A DNA stretch of 64,000 nt from Octopus sinensis (lineage: Eukaryota), in assembly GCF_006345805.1 (NCBI RefSeq), contig NC_043008.1, positions 42,842,001-42,906,000 of the forward strand. The letters run 5' to 3'. Shown here in pieces: positions 3,196 through 60,691 of the stretch; position 1 is the first letter of the stretch, and each line of letters opens with the position of its first letter. A model generated the notes under the pieces. That model worked only from the letters and a program-made list of their open reading frames with translations. It was not told the origin of the DNA and did not search any database. The translations under genes and the position numbers were made by a program.

Positions 3196-3663
3196 CAAAA
3201 ACGACAAAGACAACAGCAACAGTAACAAGAACAAGATCAAGAACAGCAATAACAAAATAGCAAAGTTGCATTTTAATATGGTAAGAATGAATGCAGGGAG
3301 TTTTTACCGATTTTTTTTGCAACGCTCCCTACTGTGTAGAGGTTTTTTGTGTGTACGTAAGCACGTATACATCTATATATGTATATGTGTATGTATACAC
3401 ACACACATGTGTATATATTTATATATATCTGTGTGCGTATGTCTGCATGTATCATGTGTAGGTTTAATGTATCCACGTATGCTGTAAGCTCACACAGATA
3501 CACACAGGAAACGTTAGCGACATAAATTCGTTGAAAATATCTTGCCACAAATGATGTCAATTCTTTTGTGACCGCGCTTAGCAAAGTCGGAAGGAATTCC
3601 CGTCAGATAGGAAATAATTTTAATAGCATTTCGTGTGTGTATGAGCGTGAGCGTGCATGCATG

Positions 3664-3818
3664 TATATATCTATATCTATATCTATATCTATATCTATAT
3701 CTATATCTATATCTATATCTATATCTATATCTATATCTATATCTATATCTATATCTATATCTATATCTATCTATCTATATATCTATCTATCTATCATCTC
3801 TCTCTCTCTCTCTCTCTC

Positions 3819-3860
<42 letters not shown>
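3664..3860. repeat. (ATATCT)n hexamer array grading into (CT)n and (TA)n
   Basis: Direct reading. Confidence 0.95.
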
Positions 3861-3861
<1 letters not shown>

Positions 3862-4730
3862 GCATACACACATATATATATATATATATATGGGTGTATA
3901 TATATTTATATGTAAAGTCATGTATAATATAAGTGTGTATTTGTGTGTGTAATACGGATACTAATACAAACATAGAGAGAAGGATTAAGCGAACGATTGT
4001 ACACGAAAAAATAATACGAATATACAGACATCAAAAGCTGCACATATCTTTAAAAAAAATCAATATTCCCCTTTACCCCCAGTTTACTTTCTCTTTCTCT
4101 CTCGCTCGCTATCAATCTCCCTCTCTTTTTCTCTCTTTCTATCCTCCCACAGTTTATCCATAAGCAAGAAGTGTCCATGTGATGTATATTAAAAAGGTCA
4201 AATATGTATCACAACAACTGACTAAACACATTAAAATGTCAACAGATCTGCAAAACTATGACAAACGGAAACATAAATCTTAGTTTTTTCCCCGTTAAAA
4301 TGTTTGCCACAAATATCACACTGCTGTGTGTGTGTCTGTGTGTGTGTGTGTGTCTATATAAGTATGTATACACACACACACCCATCTCTCTCTCTACGTA
4401 TATATATATATATATATATATATACACCACACACAAATATAATATATATCAATATCAGGAACATCAAATATTTGTTTACGTTCGTGTCTCCACATCATCA
4501 TCATCAACATCATCATCATCATCAACAACAACAACAACAATAACAACAGCAACAACTTCAAGGTCAAGGTCAACATCAACAAGCTTGTGTTGACCTTATT
4601 TTCAATTATGTGCTTAATGTAATTGATTATCATCATCATCATCATCATCACCATCGTTATCGCAGTCGTCATCGTCTTGGTGATCGTGGAGGTCGTGGTG
4701 GGGATGGCCGCGATCATCACAGTGATGGCC

Positions 4731-5082
4731 GCACATACATCACAATTTATCAAGATAAACAGCGCATGACCTTGCAAGTGGGGCCCAGGTAGAATTTTCT
4801 TCAGGTCGAATAGTGCTTCCCGCTCAAAAAGTTCTTGAATGAAGGTTGTTTAAGGATGATGAACGAAGCACCCATGTCTCCAAAACTGAATTATTCAAAT
4901 TCCAAAGAATTCCTCTCAAAACATGGCTATGATGCTCCTCCACTACTTCTGGTCGAGCTCAGAAATACCCATATCACCAGTTACTAAGGGACATGTTCAA
5001 CTTCTTAAGGTCAAGCAACTGACAATCAAATCTGTGATATTGAGCAGAATATTTGCATTAGCCCATATTTTTATACCAAGAC
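4731..5082 (-). mobile_element. Non-coding interspersed retro-repeat associated with (TAA)n (family T), copy 1
   Basis: Strong similarity to 49574-50040 and to the reverse complement of 60204-60691; abuts an (ATT)n tract. Confidence 0.8.
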
Positions 5083-5861: not shown

Positions 5862-6062
5862 ATGAGAATTTACAAAAAAGCAAACAAACAAACAAACAGA
5901 AAGCGAAGACGGGTGTGTAAACAACAAATCGATGTATTCGTTTAACGCCCGGGAAGTAAGAAAGTCTTTTACGTTTCGAGCCTATGTTCTTCGACAGAAA
6001 GGAACACAGAAAAAAACAGGGAGAGATAAAAAGGTTTAGTGGCTAGCGATCTATCATGGCGA
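5862..6062 (-). mobile_element. Short non-autonomous Penelope-like terminal element in (TA)n
   Basis: Reverse-complement match to 42795-42970; contains a minimal HHR motif; flanked by TA repeats. Confidence 0.7.
5966..6001 (-). ncRNA. Minimal type I hammerhead-like motif, variant core CUGUCGA
   Basis: Minus strand: CTTT CTGTCGA A GAAC ATAG GCTC GAAA CG TA AAAG. Stem I CTTT/AAAG, palindromic ACGT stem III, GUA site, one stem II mismatch. Confidence 0.65.
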
Positions 6063-22615: not shown

Positions 22616-22997
22616 TATTAGAGACAAAACCACTATTTTGCAAAACAAACAAGGAAAGACTTAATCAATACATAAAATTTTAATAATAGTCAAAAAAACC
22701 GCCACTACAATTGTTACTTGTCTTGATCGACAATCTTCAGGTGGACTTCCAATAAGTCTCATAATTTGAAACTGACTTATTGGAAGTCCACCTGAAGATT
22801 GTCGATCAAGACAAGTAACAATTGTAGTGGCGGTTTTTTTGACTATTTATTAAAATTTTATGTATTGATTAAGTCTTTCCTTGTTTGTTTTGCAAAATAG
22901 TGGTTTTGTCTCTAATAATATTTTATAATATTTTACTATAAAATTGGATTTAATCCTAATCTGATTTTTTCCCTGTAAATTTGGATTTATTCCCTAA

Positions 22998-39874: not shown

Positions 39875-39917
39875 TACACACACACACACATATATAATAT
39901 ATATAAATATTATGTAG

Positions 39918-40232
39918 TGTAGTCATTGGTCATAGCCGGTCAGTAAGTTACCATTGGCTTCAGGACTGTTATTCCTTTTAGCAATATAGGTGACTCAGCA
40001 GCAGATCTAATTGGACGGAGGCAGACACAATCTCTCTGATAATGGAGGTAAGAATAGAGTCTTAGTCATCATGGTGGGGGAAAAAGAGATTCTGAAACGA
40101 AATGCATCTCCTTTCTGATCAAAACTACCGTTATCTTACCTGCAGATCTGACGAGTCACCTATTTTGCCAAGAGCAAAAATAGGCGTGAAACCATTGGTA
40201 ACTTTCTGACAGGCCATAACCAACGACTACAT
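39918..40232. mobile_element. Fold-back PLE-like element with ~90-bp inverted arms, each carrying a hammerhead motif
   Basis: 39918-40008 is the imperfect reverse complement of 40143-40232. Right arm: CTGACGA GTCA CCTATTTTGC CAAGA GCAAAAATAGG CGT GAAA CCATTGG TA (40148-40200). Confidence 0.7.
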
Positions 40233-40409: not shown

Positions 40410-40895
40410 TCGCTGCTGTCTCTCTCCCCTGGCTCTCTCAAGGTAATGGACGACATTCTTTTTGCTCCGCTCGTCGTCCACAAAAAATTCTGCGTTTGCA
40501 ATACTTTTTTTTTCGTTCGGCGTTAACAGCCCTTCTTATCTTGTTTTTCCTTGTCCTGTCTTTTACTGTTTACAATTTGTACTGTCGTTACTGTCCTGTT
40601 ACCATTTTTTACCCCTCTGCGAAAGATCTCAGAATTTTAATTGATTTGCTTTTCGCAGGAAGGAAAGTTTTCTTGTCGAAGATACGTCTCGCTTTTATCC
40701 TTCGAAACGTAGAGTAGATGAAACCTTTAGCGACTGAAGAAGGGGTTTGTTCTTTGTGTTAATTGTCCTGTACTCTATTTTTTTTGCTGTTTTTAAAAAA
40801 TGTCCAGTTCCTTTGGTTTTTGTCTATGTTTTCGTTTCTCATTGTGTTGGACGTCCTTTTGGTGTCCTGTACTCATTATGCGTGTATATGTACAT
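40410..40895 (+). mobile_element. PLE-like terminal element in (TA)n carrying a rearranged hammerhead (family M)
   Basis: TA-flanked; same layout as the 48440-49306 elements (TTTGC..GCAGG/GCGGG..TCGAA..CGAAA..CTGANGAAGGG..GTCCTGT). Confidence 0.6.
40664..40745 (+). ncRNA. Candidate non-circularly permuted hammerhead ribozyme (family M)
   Basis: TACGT C TCGCT (40683-93), CTTC GAA ACGTA (40700-11), AGCGA CTGAAGA A GGGG (40729-45). Stems III and I are perfect 5 bp, stem II is 4 bp with G.U, GUC site; extra helix AAAGTTTTC/GAAACCTTT. Confidence 0.75.
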
Positions 40896-43077: not shown

Positions 43078-43119
43078 AACTGTCTGATGAACGGTCGTGC
43101 GAAACTCTGAGTAACAGTT
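43078..43119 (+). ncRNA. Compact type I hammerhead ribozyme motif
   Basis: AACTGT CTGATGA A CG GTCG TG C GAAA CTCTGAG TA ACAGTT; perfect 6-bp stem I, intact core, GUA site; diverged paralog at 48144-48185. Confidence 0.8.
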
Positions 43120-47482: not shown

Positions 47483-48242
47483 GTGTGTGTATGTGTCTGT
47501 ATGTGTATGAGTATAGGTAAATGTTCGTTTTCGAATGCTGGTTTGTGTAATGACGTCTTTATTTGTGGAGTCAATTCTGTCAGTGATATATACATATAGA
47601 GATACGCGCGCGCAGACACACATGTTTATATATATATATATGTGTATATATATATATGGTATATATGCGTGTGTGTGTATGTAGATAGGTATATGTCTAA
47701 GTTTCTGTACATATCTATGTAAATATGTATGCATATATATTATATATTTATACATATATATATATATACATATATATATAATACATACATACATACATAC
47801 ATATATATATACATATATATATATATTCACACAGACACACGCAAGCACATACACACACACATATATAGGTTCATGCATGTGTATATTGTATATATATACG
47901 TATGTCTGTGTGTGTATGTAGATATGTATATATTTAAGTTTGCGTAGATATCTAATCAAATATGTATATATACATACACACACACATATATATATATTCA
48001 TACATACGCACACACGTGTAGGCAAATAGGTGCAAAACAAGGTGTAAAAACTACACCAATATCAAAGTTCGACTGATGTATTATTCTTTTTTAAACAAAA
48101 CGCATCTTCTTAAACTTACTGAATATTCATTTTTAATAATTACAACTGTCTGATAAATGGTCACACGGAACATCGAGTAAACATCTGTGAAAATTTTCCT
48201 CAGTTAAAGTATATATATATATATAACATATAAACATAAATA

Positions 48243-48404: not shown

Positions 48405-48565
48405 ATCTATCTATCTATATATATATATATGCATAAATGGGCACATGACGTCAAGAAACGTGTACAACAAAAAAAAAATACGAAGCACGAGTACGTGGAA
48501 TATGAATTATTCTTTCGAATAACGAAAGACACAAATGGAAAGGAAAACAAACAGCATAAAGAACG

Positions 48566-48645
48566 ACCCTTCATCAGGTGTTGACAGTTTTTCTAGTCTC
48601 GTATTTCGAACATTTAACAACAATATACGCTTTCGACGAAACTGT
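48566..48645 (-). ncRNA. Candidate non-circularly permuted hammerhead (family N, copy 1)
   Basis: Minus strand: ACAGTTT..CGTAT A TTGTTG ttaaat GTTC GAA ATACG..AAACTGT CAACAC CTGATGA A GGGT. Confidence 0.7.
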
Positions 48646-48691
48646 TGCTCCCGCAAAGTAAAGTAAACAAAATTTAGGATTTTTGTGGAGG

Positions 48692-48762
<71 letters not shown>

Positions 48763-48948
48763 ATTATGTGTACATACTTACATCTATACGTATATATATA
48801 TATATTTATATAAGCATATGTAGGCAGAGGACATCACGAAAGGCGTACAACAAAAAGAAAATACGAAGCACGAGTACATGGAACATGAATTATTCTTTCG
48901 AACAATGAAAGACACAAATGGAAAACAAAACAAACAGCATAAAGAAAG

Positions 48949-49012
48949 ACCCTTTATCAGTTGTTGGCTGTTTTTCTACTCTCGTATTTCGGGCATTTAA
49001 CAACAATATACG
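48949..49012 (-). ncRNA. Candidate non-circularly permuted hammerhead (family N, copy 2; 5'-truncated, core CUGAUAA)
   Basis: Minus strand: CGTAT A TTGTTG ttaaat GCCC GAA ATACG..CAACAA CTGATAA A GGGT; stems fully paired but G8 mutated. Confidence 0.6.
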
Positions 49013-49099
49013 CTGTTAGTTTTCGGTGCCTTGTTTATGCTACCAATTTTGACCCTCCGCAAAATCCCAAATTTTATTTACTTTGCTTTGCGGGAGCAA

Positions 49100-49178
49100 C
49101 TGTTTTATCGAAAGCGTATATTGTTGTTAAATATTCGAAATACGAGACTAGAAAAACAGCCAACACCTGATGAAGGGT
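49100..49178 (+). ncRNA. Candidate non-circularly permuted hammerhead (family N, copy 3)
   Basis: CTGTTTT..CGTAT A TTGTTG ttaaat ATTC GAA ATACG..AAAACAG c CAACAC CTGATGA A GGGT; AUA site at 49118-49120. Confidence 0.72.
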
Positions 49179-49305
49179 CGTTCTTTATCCTGTTTTGTTT
49201 TCTTTTCCATTTGTGTCTTTCGTTGTTCGAAAGAATAGTTCACGTTCCTTGTACTCGTGCTTGGTATGTTTTGTTGTACAATTTTCATGACGTCCTGTGC
49301 CCACG

Positions 49306-49384
<79 letters not shown>

Positions 49385-49573: not shown

Positions 49574-50040
49574 AGTGAGAGAGCAGTGCGTGCCATCAAA
49601 TTGATGCAGGGGTACAATCATACGACGTCCAGTATACACACTATGTCTACCCGTGTGATACGGGTGCACCAGGCGCAGGCATCACAACCATATGGGCATG
49701 ACATGGGGGTCTCACGTCAAAATAAACAGCACATGACCTTGCAGGTGGGGCCCAGTTAGAATTTTCTTCAGGTCCAGACACCCATCCTGCTCAAAAGCTC
49801 ACTGAATGAGGGTTGTTTAAGGATGATGAACGAAACACCCATATTTCAAGAGGTGAATTATTCAAACCCCAAATAATTCTACTCAGCAACTATTTAAGGT
49901 CTTAGAACTGACAAGAAAATCTGTGATATTGAACAGAATATTTACTGTAGCACAACATTTATGTCAAGACAACGCGTGCACGTGATAACACTTCCAATCA
50001 GTTAAGATCAGAAACCACGAGCGCCACTGACTTGCACTGC
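49574..50040 (-). mobile_element. Family T retro-repeat, copy 2 (internal deletion)
   Basis: Similarity to 4731-5082 and 60204-60691. Confidence 0.8.
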
Positions 50041-50149: not shown

Positions 50150-50151
50150 TG

Positions 50152-50872
50152 TTGAAGAGAAATTACAACTTAAGAGGACAAAAAATGGTGGAGCAAATGG
50201 TGGAAACGAGGCATTGAAAGAGACATAATTCGGGCAAGGCAAGATCTAGGAAAAGTTGAACAATGGTTAAGAGGAAACTGAAAAATGGGGAAAAGACCGA
50301 CCGACAAAAATTTGAGAAGAAATATATAATACGGAAGAACGGGTTTGATGCAATAATGGAGCAGTTGAAACAGAGGATCATGGGAAAAAGTCAGATGATC
50401 AGAAGAACAGAAATAAACAGTTCGAAGAGAACAGATTGTTGAAAAATAACTCGAAGCAATTCTTCCGAAAGTTAGAAGGAGACGATGGGAAAAATTTTGC
50501 TCCTAATGCAAATCAAGCCAAGGAGTTCTGGAGCGGATTATGGGGAAACAATGCGGTGCGTAAAAAGGATGCATTGTAGATAGGAGCTATCAAGACAGAA
50601 TTACAAGGAGGAAAAACAAAAACAAAGGAATATTGTCATAATCATGGATGACGTCAAAGAACAAGTGGGCAAAGGGCCTAACTGGAAAGGTCCCCCCCGC
50701 CACCAGACCAGATGGGATTCATGGCTTTTGGTCGAAGTGATGCCACGCAGTGCATGAAAGACTATCAACCCAAATGAATGAGTGTGTCCAAAAAGGTACA
50801 GTCCCCGCGTGAATGGTGACTGGGAAGCCAACTCTTGTAATGAAAGAAAGAAGAAAGGGGAATATTGTGGGA
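50152..50872 (+). pseudogene. R4/Dong-clade non-LTR retrotransposon fragment (pre-RT region and RT start)
   Basis: KFEKKYII..MEQLKQRI..ENRLLKNNSKQFFRKL..PNANQAKEFWSGLWG..PNWKGP..PDGIHGFW..GTVPA*MVTGKPTLVMK..KG; frameshifts and stops. Confidence 0.8.
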
Positions 50873-59030: not shown

Positions 59031-60020
59031 GACTGTTTCAACTCACAGAACAGAGATTATGTGATCAAGCTAGAGCAATAAGAAAAAATCGTTGGTTTAC
59101 AGAAGTAGAGCTTGAAACTATCAAAACATGGGTATTGGAAAATAGCGGCAGAGGAAACGAGGAAAATACAGTTTCTACTGATAGAAGTAATTTTATAGCA
59201 GAAAACAGAAGTGAAATCTCTAATAAACCGCAAGAAAGGAACGGTGATAGCTTGTTTGATGAGAGACATATATCTAAATGTCTCTCATTTGGAAGAGGAC
59301 AATAAAACTAATGGTGACATGACAGATGGACAAAAGGCAATCTACGACAGAATAAAGGCAAGGCTACAAGAGAACGATAGCGACATTATTTGCAACGTTA
59401 AAATGGTTGATCGAAGGAAATTGAATCAAGAAACGAAAAATGTGAATGAAATTCTGAAATACGTCAGAACAAAAAAAAAACATGATGGAGATTTGATCAA
59501 GGTAGTAAGTATTGTTGTAGCAGAAAATGTGGGTGTTCATGTCAAGAAAAATCCATACAATGGGAGTGAGAAGAGAAAAGATCCATGGTGGAAAAGAACA
59601 ATACAGGCGTGGTTAGAAGGACATTTCTGTGCGAGACCAAAAAGAGAAGCAAGAGCTTAAAAGCAAACCAAAATACAGGGCCTGAAAGCGGTAATGGAGG
59701 AACTCAAACAGCGCTTGGTTGCAAAGGAAGCAAAGATGGTAAGATACGATCAAAGAATGAAGGGGTGCCAGCAGAAAATGTTATTCAGAGTAGATAAGAA
59801 GAGACTCTACAAAGAAACGAATGGAGAGTGTACAGATGAAACATTGATGCCAGATAACAATGAAAGTCAAAGGTTTTGAAGTGATATCTGTAACAAAGAC
59901 AAGGAGCACAAGAAGGATGCTGAATGGTTGCAAGAACTGAATCAAACACTAGTCTGTCCATCCAAAACAGACAGAACTAGTCATTTCAGTTAGGGAAGTG
60001 ATGGAAATCAGCAAAAAAAA
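59030..60020 (+). pseudogene. R4/Dong-clade LINE N-terminal fragment
   Basis: [89 protein letters not shown]; frameshifted. Confidence 0.85.
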
Positions 60021-60203: not shown

Positions 60204-60691
60204 ATGTACATTGTTTTGTCTTGGTATAAAAGATGGGCTCCAGCAAATATTCTGCTCAATACCACATATTTGCTTGTCAGTTGTTTGACCGTAACCAGTT
60301 GAGCATGTCCCTTAGTGGCTGACGATATATGCATCTCTCATCACGAGCAGAAGTAGTGGGGGAGCATCATAGCCGTGTGTTGAGAAGAATTCTTTGGGGT
60401 TTGGATAATTCACCTCTGGATGCATGGGTGTTTCGTTCAACATCATTAAACAACCCTTATTCAGGGACCTTTTGAGCGGGATGGGTTGCTCGACAAGAAG
60501 AAAATTCTAACTGGGCCCCACCTGCAAGGTCATGCGTTGTTTGTCTTGATATGAGATCACCATGTCGCACACATATGGTTGTGATGTATGTGTCTGGTGT
60601 ACACTATCAGACGGGTAGTCATGATGGGTATACTGGGCTTCGTATATTTTACTCCAGTGTCACTTTGATGGCATGCACTGCTCTCTCACTC
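60204..60691 (+). mobile_element. Family T retro-repeat, copy 3, inserted in (AAT)n
   Basis: Preceded by (AAT)n and followed by an AAT/AAC tail; homologous to copies 1 and 2. Confidence 0.85.

Follow-up and report, generated by a model that had tools for sequence, protein, structure and literature searches.

An auxiliary helix, here called P4, accompanies the rearranged hammerhead cores of a repeat in the window (i.e., the whole 64,000-nt stretch of DNA analyzed), confirming the observation of the earlier note. We consider it probable that P4 serves as the bridge holding together a permuted hammerhead made of four pieces, located in the tail of a Naiad-type Penelope-like element (PLE) repeat, with cutting predicted. 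Judged by its position, P4 is a known functional helix type within a new architecture; the strongest evidence for it is that this position is kept across Naiad families with unrelated sequence, and the weakest is a base-pair swap in one window copy.

The repeat and its copies

The window is microsatellite-rich DNA, animal and perhaps cephalopod-like in appearance, without long open reading frames (ORFs). One repeat occurs in it four times, as copies 1–3 within 48432–49308, which are 88–90% alike in pairwise comparison, and as a family M copy at 40411–40885 on the forward strand, which shares 53–56% with copies 1–3 (identity ∼55%). Copy 3 (49015–49308, forward) adjoins (TA)n at its 3′ end and lies head-to-head with copy 2 (48815–49014, reverse), which is 5′-truncated within the loop preceding block S and has the core CTGATAA; copy 1 (48432–48694, reverse) has (TA)n at both ends and C3 of its core at 48577. 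Because the four copies have four distinct 5′ ends, (TA)n flanks, and one head-to-head pair (copies 2 and 3), the repeat fits a PLE. An HMM built on the four copies recovered no fifth copy, with three extra matches at E 1.4–2.6, and no coding sequence, ORF, or reverse transcriptase was found attached to any of the four; a Naiad would be recognized by an N-terminal GIY-YIG domain together with a reverse transcriptase having CxC and DKA motifs. Copies 1 (48564–48694, reverse) and 3 (49051–49180, forward) have in common two family-rare letters, 49134 T and 49166 C (∼1–2 in 100 by depth), and are thus close kin, despite P4 differing on both strands. The M copy carries, close to its 5′ end, an 8-bp hairpin (40447–40480) that overlaps a splice-donor-like AG/GTAATG at 40441–40448; introns can occur in PLE terminal repeats.

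Twenty public runs from five organisms share words with the window, with at least half shared in one run only and none of the runs on record as RNA. In three larger runs from three organisms (two guessed to be DNA, one of unrecorded kind), 3,540–4,501 contigs map onto 292 bases of the repeat, and its summed depth reaches up to 0.36–1.0 million, compared with ∼20–65 for single contigs. The repeat family is therefore very abundant in the runs of three organisms, depth figures being distinct from copy number. In a further run (X18), 570 contigs mapped; its RNA origin is a guess, so these contigs are uninformative on expression.

Layout of the rearranged hammerhead

The three cores recovered in the window by a descriptor follow the order S-G-C (site, GAAA, CUGANGA). 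The repeat has CUGANGA, GAAA, and UH as well as stems I and III, every core base being intact in M and G8 being lost in copy 2. The first stem I pair is U.C in copies 1 and 3. In copy 3, all on the forward strand, the layout begins with X1 (49051–49056), which forms helix A by pairing 6/6 with the strand following CUGAUGA, with two compensatory changes between copy 3 and M. Hairpin H (49057–49093), with a 7-bp base, has zero unpaired bases to X1 or X2, giving a four-way junction, and X2 (49094–49098) would pair with 49132–49136 as helix B, contributing G10.1 and the remainder of stem II. Block S (49115–49126) contains a stem III strand, U16.1-A17, and a stem I strand, with the cut predicted at 49120/49121 by analogy with hammerheads; block G (49132–49144) contains a stem II strand ending in C11.1, GAAA, and a stem III strand; and block C (49161–49179) contains stem I′, CUGAUGA (49167–49173), and the helix A strand. 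The forward-strand counterparts in family M are X1 at 40611–40616, H at 40617–40658, X2 at 40659–40663, a predicted cut after C40688, GAAA at 40704–40707, the core at 40734–40740, and the helix A strand at 40741–40746. Stem II is poor in its usual register; instead, the strand before GAAA pairs with X2, placing a G opposite C11.1, and this upstream G is the best partner of C11.1, a G after a one-base insertion also being possible.

A descriptor scan recovered the three S-G-C cores of the window, all three with X2, P4 (6–7 of 7 pairs), A, and H, whereas 300 shuffled windows yielded one core and no full layout; the entire upstream cassette arose by chance in 1/5000 and 0/5000 shuffles. No Rfam hammerhead family matched at E up to 10 in 40420–40860 or 49015–49300, and across the whole window only microsatellite-driven miRNA-type matches below the gathering score were present among the 150 of 374 matches listed. 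A pattern scan returned eight loci in metagenome contigs, all eight without a fitting S block, in bacterial-looking sequence, and apparently due to chance, and none in viral contigs or prokaryote genomes. The repeat does not fit a non-LTR retrozyme: the copies are dispersed with microsatellites between them, the order is S-G-C, and there is no head-to-tail type-I tandem. The searches described in the retrozyme preprint (10.64898/2026.07.22.740005) are of type-I models alone.

The P4 helix

The helix CTGTTTT/AAAACAG of copy 3 is entirely Watson–Crick (7/7), pairing 49100–49106 with 49153–49159 on the forward strand; its flanking pair is A.C, its 5′ strand reaches inward to 49108–49109 over a 1-nt bulge, and its 3′ strand lies 1 nt ahead of stem I′. 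The eight of nine pairs claimed for family M were also recovered (40664–40672 with 40720–40728, forward; one U.C), as were the shared linker motifs TCGAA and GA(G/C)TAG, which flank P4 in both families with G in copy 2 and M and C in copies 1 and 3. In copy 1 (48645–48638/48591–48584, reverse), 48645–48639 and 48590–48584 form 7/7 pairs and the next inner pair is C.A; the 7-mer quoted for this copy in the earlier note begins one base earlier than the in-register helix. The compensatory swap reported there is real, as the second pair, U-A in copy 3, is A-U in copy 1, but it lends weak support, as it is rare in the family: in each of four runs, A>T at 49158 stays below 4 in 100 among the variants listed. 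P4 is almost invariant in the mapped family, with one listed change, at 49103 (7 in 100 in one run).

P4 was found in all three 5′-complete window copies, copy 2, truncated at 49014, being without the 5′ strand. A random strand from shuffled element sequence pairs equally well at the P4 register with P 0.004, 0.003, and 0.0007, three values that are not independent because the copies are homologous. Between copy 3 and M, P4 alone has two two-sided changes kept, one pair gained, and one lost, and this window-only covariation is not significant (null 38486/200000, P ∼0.19).

The 5′ strand of P4 starts 0–1 nt after X2 and its 3′ strand ends 0–1 nt before stem I′. With the strands so placed, a three-way junction would unite the outer end of P4 with the distal ends of stems I and II, its third link being 5 nt. 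The earlier proposal of stacking on stem I and a clamp on the knotted fold was thus largely right in kind, the 3′ strand being 0–1 nt from stem I′, but it overlooked that the 5′ strand adjoins the stem II-forming strand (0–1 nt) and that P4 is nested on stem III. A clamp role that bridges stems I and II is likely.

At the inner end, two or three more pairs are followed by a 5x6 or 5x5 purine-rich loop and then by stem III. In copy 3, the 5′ loop strand joining P4 to stem III (49108–49114, forward) is UC-GAA-AG, a presumptive sarcin-ricin-like GAA side, and the 3′ strand (49145–49152, forward) is A-GA(C/G)UA-GA, with its variable base at 49148, where C is the majority and G occurs in 25–38 of 100 by depth. 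Opposite GAA there is thus AGUA or ACUA, the former in M, copy 2, and the 25–38 of 100. A sarcin-ricin-like or loop E-like fold is suggested by AGUA opposite GAA, C-G closing, the 6x5 loop of family 1, and the position of the variable base as the bulged one, whereas the M loop is 5x5 and the Naiad tails examined do not retain the motif. PMC13085918 and PMC8450098 describe AGUA as the usual strand of the sarcin-ricin motif, a variant with C as the bulged base being rarer and ∼5 kcal less stable; the PSTVd review PMC8403530 places C259 in loop E, with its pairing not confirmed there. A kink-turn, as defined in PMC12510878, is our second choice, possible for M but not for copies 1 and 3.

Covariation, folding, and family alleles

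Of 38 pairs compared between copy 3 and M, 14 carry changes in both strands, and 13 of the 14 form a pair in either sequence (null 2/200000), a count made on the same sequences from which the helices were chosen. The two-sided changes kept are two in A, two in H, one of two in B, two in P4, four in III, and two in I; a further four pairs changed on one side, three of which end paired. Pairs were counted by junction-anchored coordinates because the MAFFT alignment misplaces H and X2 in M.

Duplex energies are −9 to −10 for helix A; for helix B and the classical stem II, respectively, they are +1.0 and +0.5 in copy 3, −3.3 and +1.7 in copy 1, and −6.5 and −3.1 in M. Helix B is thus the stronger of the two in copy 1 and M, and in copy 3 both are unstable. 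When pseudoknots are left aside, the minimum-energy fold of the copy-3 fragment 49051–49180 consists of A, H, P4, and III, with a P4 probability of 0.83, and leaves the top loop, X2, and I′-CUGAUGA free, whereas in family M the nested scaffold lies 4.6 kcal above the minimum and the P4 probability is 0.001. With downstream sequence added, P4 is absent from the minimum fold in copy 3 and M and takes a shifted register in copy 1, and folding z-scores are just −0.1 to −1.9.

The alleles of the family in public runs are independent of the four-way-junction model, yet fit it. At 49133, 49134, and 49166, 98–99 in 100 by depth differ from copy 3 in four runs, and the majority letters would make helix B and stem I fully Watson–Crick. 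An X2 variant at 10–28 in 100 (four runs) matches the CCTTC-GAAA of loose ends and, the alleles being unphased, may pair with an M-type partner. Among the 15 of 19 contig joints at the repeat that were listed, one single contig, from a DNA run, “goes back”; no position at which many molecules start or stop was seen, although contigs are unable to show RNA ends or circles.

The same layout in Naiad tails

Naiads are described by Craig 2021 (PMC8557442) as being without canonical hammerheads, and some are flagged there as HHR_core or HHR_half_core, with no fold given in the parts of the paper covered here. In the supplement to that paper, four core words were searched in the sequences of 54 Naiad families (CTGACGA only among the matches listed), and the matches were parsed by eye, unaligned, a search that misses cores split by line ends. 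The window layout was present, in unrelated sequence, in at least 10 Naiad consensus tails from seven lineages, with a P4 of 5–15 bp located 0–2 nt from X2: Bfor (15 bp; helix A and stem I weak), Amil, Aacu, and Anas (10 bp each), a tail that is probably Plae by file order (9 bp), 3_Chem and 2_Movir (8 bp each), Obim and Ovul (5 bp each; helix A weak), and a further tail with no name assigned (5 bp). Four of these, 3_Chem, 2_Movir, Bfor, and Ovul, belong to the families flagged HHR_core or HHR_half_core by Craig (PMC8557442). At least six more tails (1_, 2_, and 3_Nbra and three others; mostly or all nematode) are of type CSG with a normal stem II, and in these an 8–15-bp helix runs from before stem I′ to after stem II and is not nested on stem III. 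Eight non-coding matches among those listed did not fit (Esco, 2_Skow, and six others), and the other core-word matches were in coding sequence or without such context. The joints between P4 and III in the tails are varied: 3x6 (Octopus), 1x8 (coral), branched, 5x0, 0x3, and 1x0. We read the 3x6 Octopus joint as a kink-turn pattern.

Like Naiads (PMC8557442), the window copies sit at (TA)n targets, are 5′-truncated, include a truncated copy that lies inverted at the 5′ end, and have the ribozyme layout in their 3′ tail; they differ in lacking a linked ORF and in matching no Naiad consensus tail examined, and three 10-nt core-plus-stem words of the window copies likewise had no match in those tails. 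Naiad identity is indicated by the common ribozyme layout, and the repeat may be the tail of an autonomous Naiad-type element or a non-autonomous derivative. Two other motifs were seen by eye in the same supplement: the Naiad-1_Movir tail ends with a twister-like motif, and another Naiad tail has a different S-G-C arrangement in which separate hairpins replace stem II.

Relation to type SGC and type CSG hammerheads

The main text of Eckert 2023 (PMC10085705) describes a helix that connects stems I and II at their distal sides, is needed for cleavage, and was rescued from disruption by compensation (M8/M9). Because the outer end of P4 sits at stems I and II, P4 would correspond to this circled-“I” bridge and not to a new kind of helix. 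Type SGC, exemplified by HRIMA-1, shares with the window form the order S-G-C, all core bases, a short linker between stems I and II, and a helix that sits directly between the G10.1 strand and stem I′ at its outer end and is closely linked to the far end of stem III. In type SGC, however, CUGANGA comes before the G10.1 strand and the helix has its partner downstream, whereas both are upstream in the window form, which also has a four-way junction (A, H) at A9, P4 strands that both continue into stem III, and a block C that is not unbroken, since the strand after CUGANGA pairs with X1. The window form is a high-copy animal genomic repeat, whereas SGC is given in the main text of Eckert 2023 (PMC10085705) as present in metatranscriptomes only, with none in genomes of known organisms. 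The comparison rests on that main text, and the HRIMA-1 and SGC-variant alignments in the supplement may hold closer forms.

Type CSG, represented by two sequences in PMC10085705 and by the CSG Naiad tails, has the same cyclic strand order and a bridging helix into stem III, but it has an ordinary stem II, which the window form lacks, and no A/H junction. The window form may be described as a circular permutation of type CSG opened between A9 and G10.1. In the literature examined, we found no active precedent for a core whose A9 exits into a four-way junction, nor a description of this layout in the literature on permuted, SGC, octopus, and Penelope/Naiad hammerheads, which was covered mostly at abstract level and outside most subscription journals.

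Proposed mechanism and alternatives

In the proposed mechanism, the 5′-to-3′ order is X1-H-X2-P4a-loop-[III′ UH I]-[II′ GAAA III]-loop-P4b-[I′ CUGANGA]-A′, and X2 would act as the G10.1 strand, making this a type-CSG/SGC ribozyme whose chain is broken between A9 and G10.1 but reclosed by the four-way junction. A, H, P4, and III would form first, as a nested scaffold, and the top loop of stem III would next dock onto X2 and I′, completing the core. The three-way junction of stems I, II, and P4 would keep I and II side by side, as the SGC “I” helix does, and may stand in for the contact between loops that ordinary hammerheads use. Stem III of an ordinary hammerhead is directed away from stems I and II, and P4 must therefore fold back. 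Docking could be intramolecular, with the P4/III loop sharply bent, or could involve two copies of a tandem transcript, with the balance tipping slightly toward one molecule. The likely job would be to cut the element precursor RNA ∼190 nt upstream of its 3′ end, a role tentatively put forward for the hammerheads of other PLEs.

Two copies may need to cooperate because the one-sided 5x0, 0x3, and 1x0 joints can hardly turn; difficulty in folding back is also noted in the main text of PMC10085705 for SGC forms without a linker. The minimal PLE hammerheads of PMC4209133 are a partial parallel, being located in the PLE terminal region and possibly needing two copies to cut; they are CGS forms whose weak stem III is exchanged upon dimerization, whereas the window form has a strong stem III, and any dimer would swap loop against base. 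A possible reading, to which we give less than even weight, is that P4, the loop, and III form a stiff strut whose loop docks on a second copy, so that only tandem (pLTR) transcripts are cut, and that this is the “missing” ribozyme of many Naiads, from comb jellies to cephalopods. It is based on a geometric estimate from three Naiad tails in the supplement with a one-sided P4/III bulge (1x0, 0x3, and 5x0 nt), and against it the kink-turn-like joint of the Octopus Naiad and the 1x8 joint of the coral tail would suit a monomer.

Other roles for the strands of P4 were weighed against that of a bridge. The 3′ strand could instead pair at 49189–49196 (forward) in a classical type-SGC ribozyme having a 4-bp stem II with an inserted base, X1/X2/P4a being an off-state that would prevent cutting. 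This is unlikely: the downstream partner is perfect and equally good in copy 3 (−6.3 against −6.6 kcal), and the family majority letters there still permit eight pairs, one of them G.U, but pairing there is poor in copy 1 (−2.3) and M (−1.8), and the site is prone to indels and 10 nt away from stem II. The classical 4-bp stem II with a one-base insertion is drawable as in HRIMA-1, the search pattern of which tolerates an extra base after A9 (PMC10085705), yet it depends on G.U pairs available to any G-run, and in the Naiad tails examined the strands before GAAA and after CUGANGA pair upstream, with the junction geometry kept. That P4 mainly holds the 5′ product for religation or circle formation, as the earlier note had also suggested, seems quite unlikely. 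By sequence, the 5′ piece would still be held by A, B, P4, and III after cutting, and circular PLE RNA is proposed in PMC4209133; however, P4 is just one of these four tethers, a circle requires two tandem cuts and the window copies are dispersed, and for the Poseidon PLE, PMC11167929 describes cleavage as unneeded for insertion in vitro, with no reads ended at the site. A circularization role for P4 is unsupported.

We regard it as very unlikely that P4 is a mere longer stem III, forming a rod or a protein-binding sarcin-ricin site with no part in docking stems I and II. P4 is indeed nested on stem III, the isolated rod folds so in both families, and the loop has AGUA/GAA or ACUA/GAA, but the outer end of P4 is always 0–2 nt from X2 and near stem I′ in the seven lineages of tails examined, while the inner joint varies freely, and in the CSG Naiads of the same supplement the equivalent helix lacks such nesting altogether. 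It is hardly credible that P4 is chance pairing in low-complexity, U-rich sequence and that the swap arose by DNA template switching between inverted arms. CTGTTT-like words recur within the element, the swap is rare, and by our own arithmetic the chance of a compensated swap between two copies 10.5% apart is roughly 0.03; against this stand the fixed-register P of 0.004–0.0007, the shuffles of the whole cassette described above, and the G+C-rich versions of P4 in the Naiad tails examined.

Other features of the window

Motifs of type-I hammerheads in which a single base closes stem III are present at 43084 (forward) and 9007 (reverse), with a degenerate relative at 48144–48197 (forward), and are laid out like the Hydra-clade PLE hammerheads in Craig File S2 (PMC8557442). 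More CTGACGA cores lie at 40148, 29630, and 8273 (all forward), two of them with GAAA downstream; the 40148 core has an inverted partial copy at 39906–39996 and the 29630 core a relative at 5967–5999 (reverse). Several PLE-like families seem to be present in the window. A long near-perfect palindrome with ∼58-bp arms at ∼22697–22835 is MITE-like, and a further dispersed repeat occurs at 4748–5071, 49664–49888, and 60228–60602, 83–84% alike and in opposite orientations. Broken reading frames lie beside (TAA)n/(TTA)n runs at ∼50150–50790 and 59200–59900; they presumably resemble the N-terminal part of R4/Dong-type non-LTR elements, and three ORF pieces from them had no significant match in Pfam.

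Significance

P4 offers a clean handle for disruption and rescue that decides between monomer and dimer, and it bears on the role of PLE hammerheads. If the predicted cutting is true, non-circularly permuted hammerheads would be abundant in animal genomes and not confined to metatranscriptome and metagenome contigs, and the block of CUGANGA plus stem II would not be indivisible. Naiads would then not be hammerhead-free, and their “HHR_core” and “half_core” motifs would gain a testable fold.
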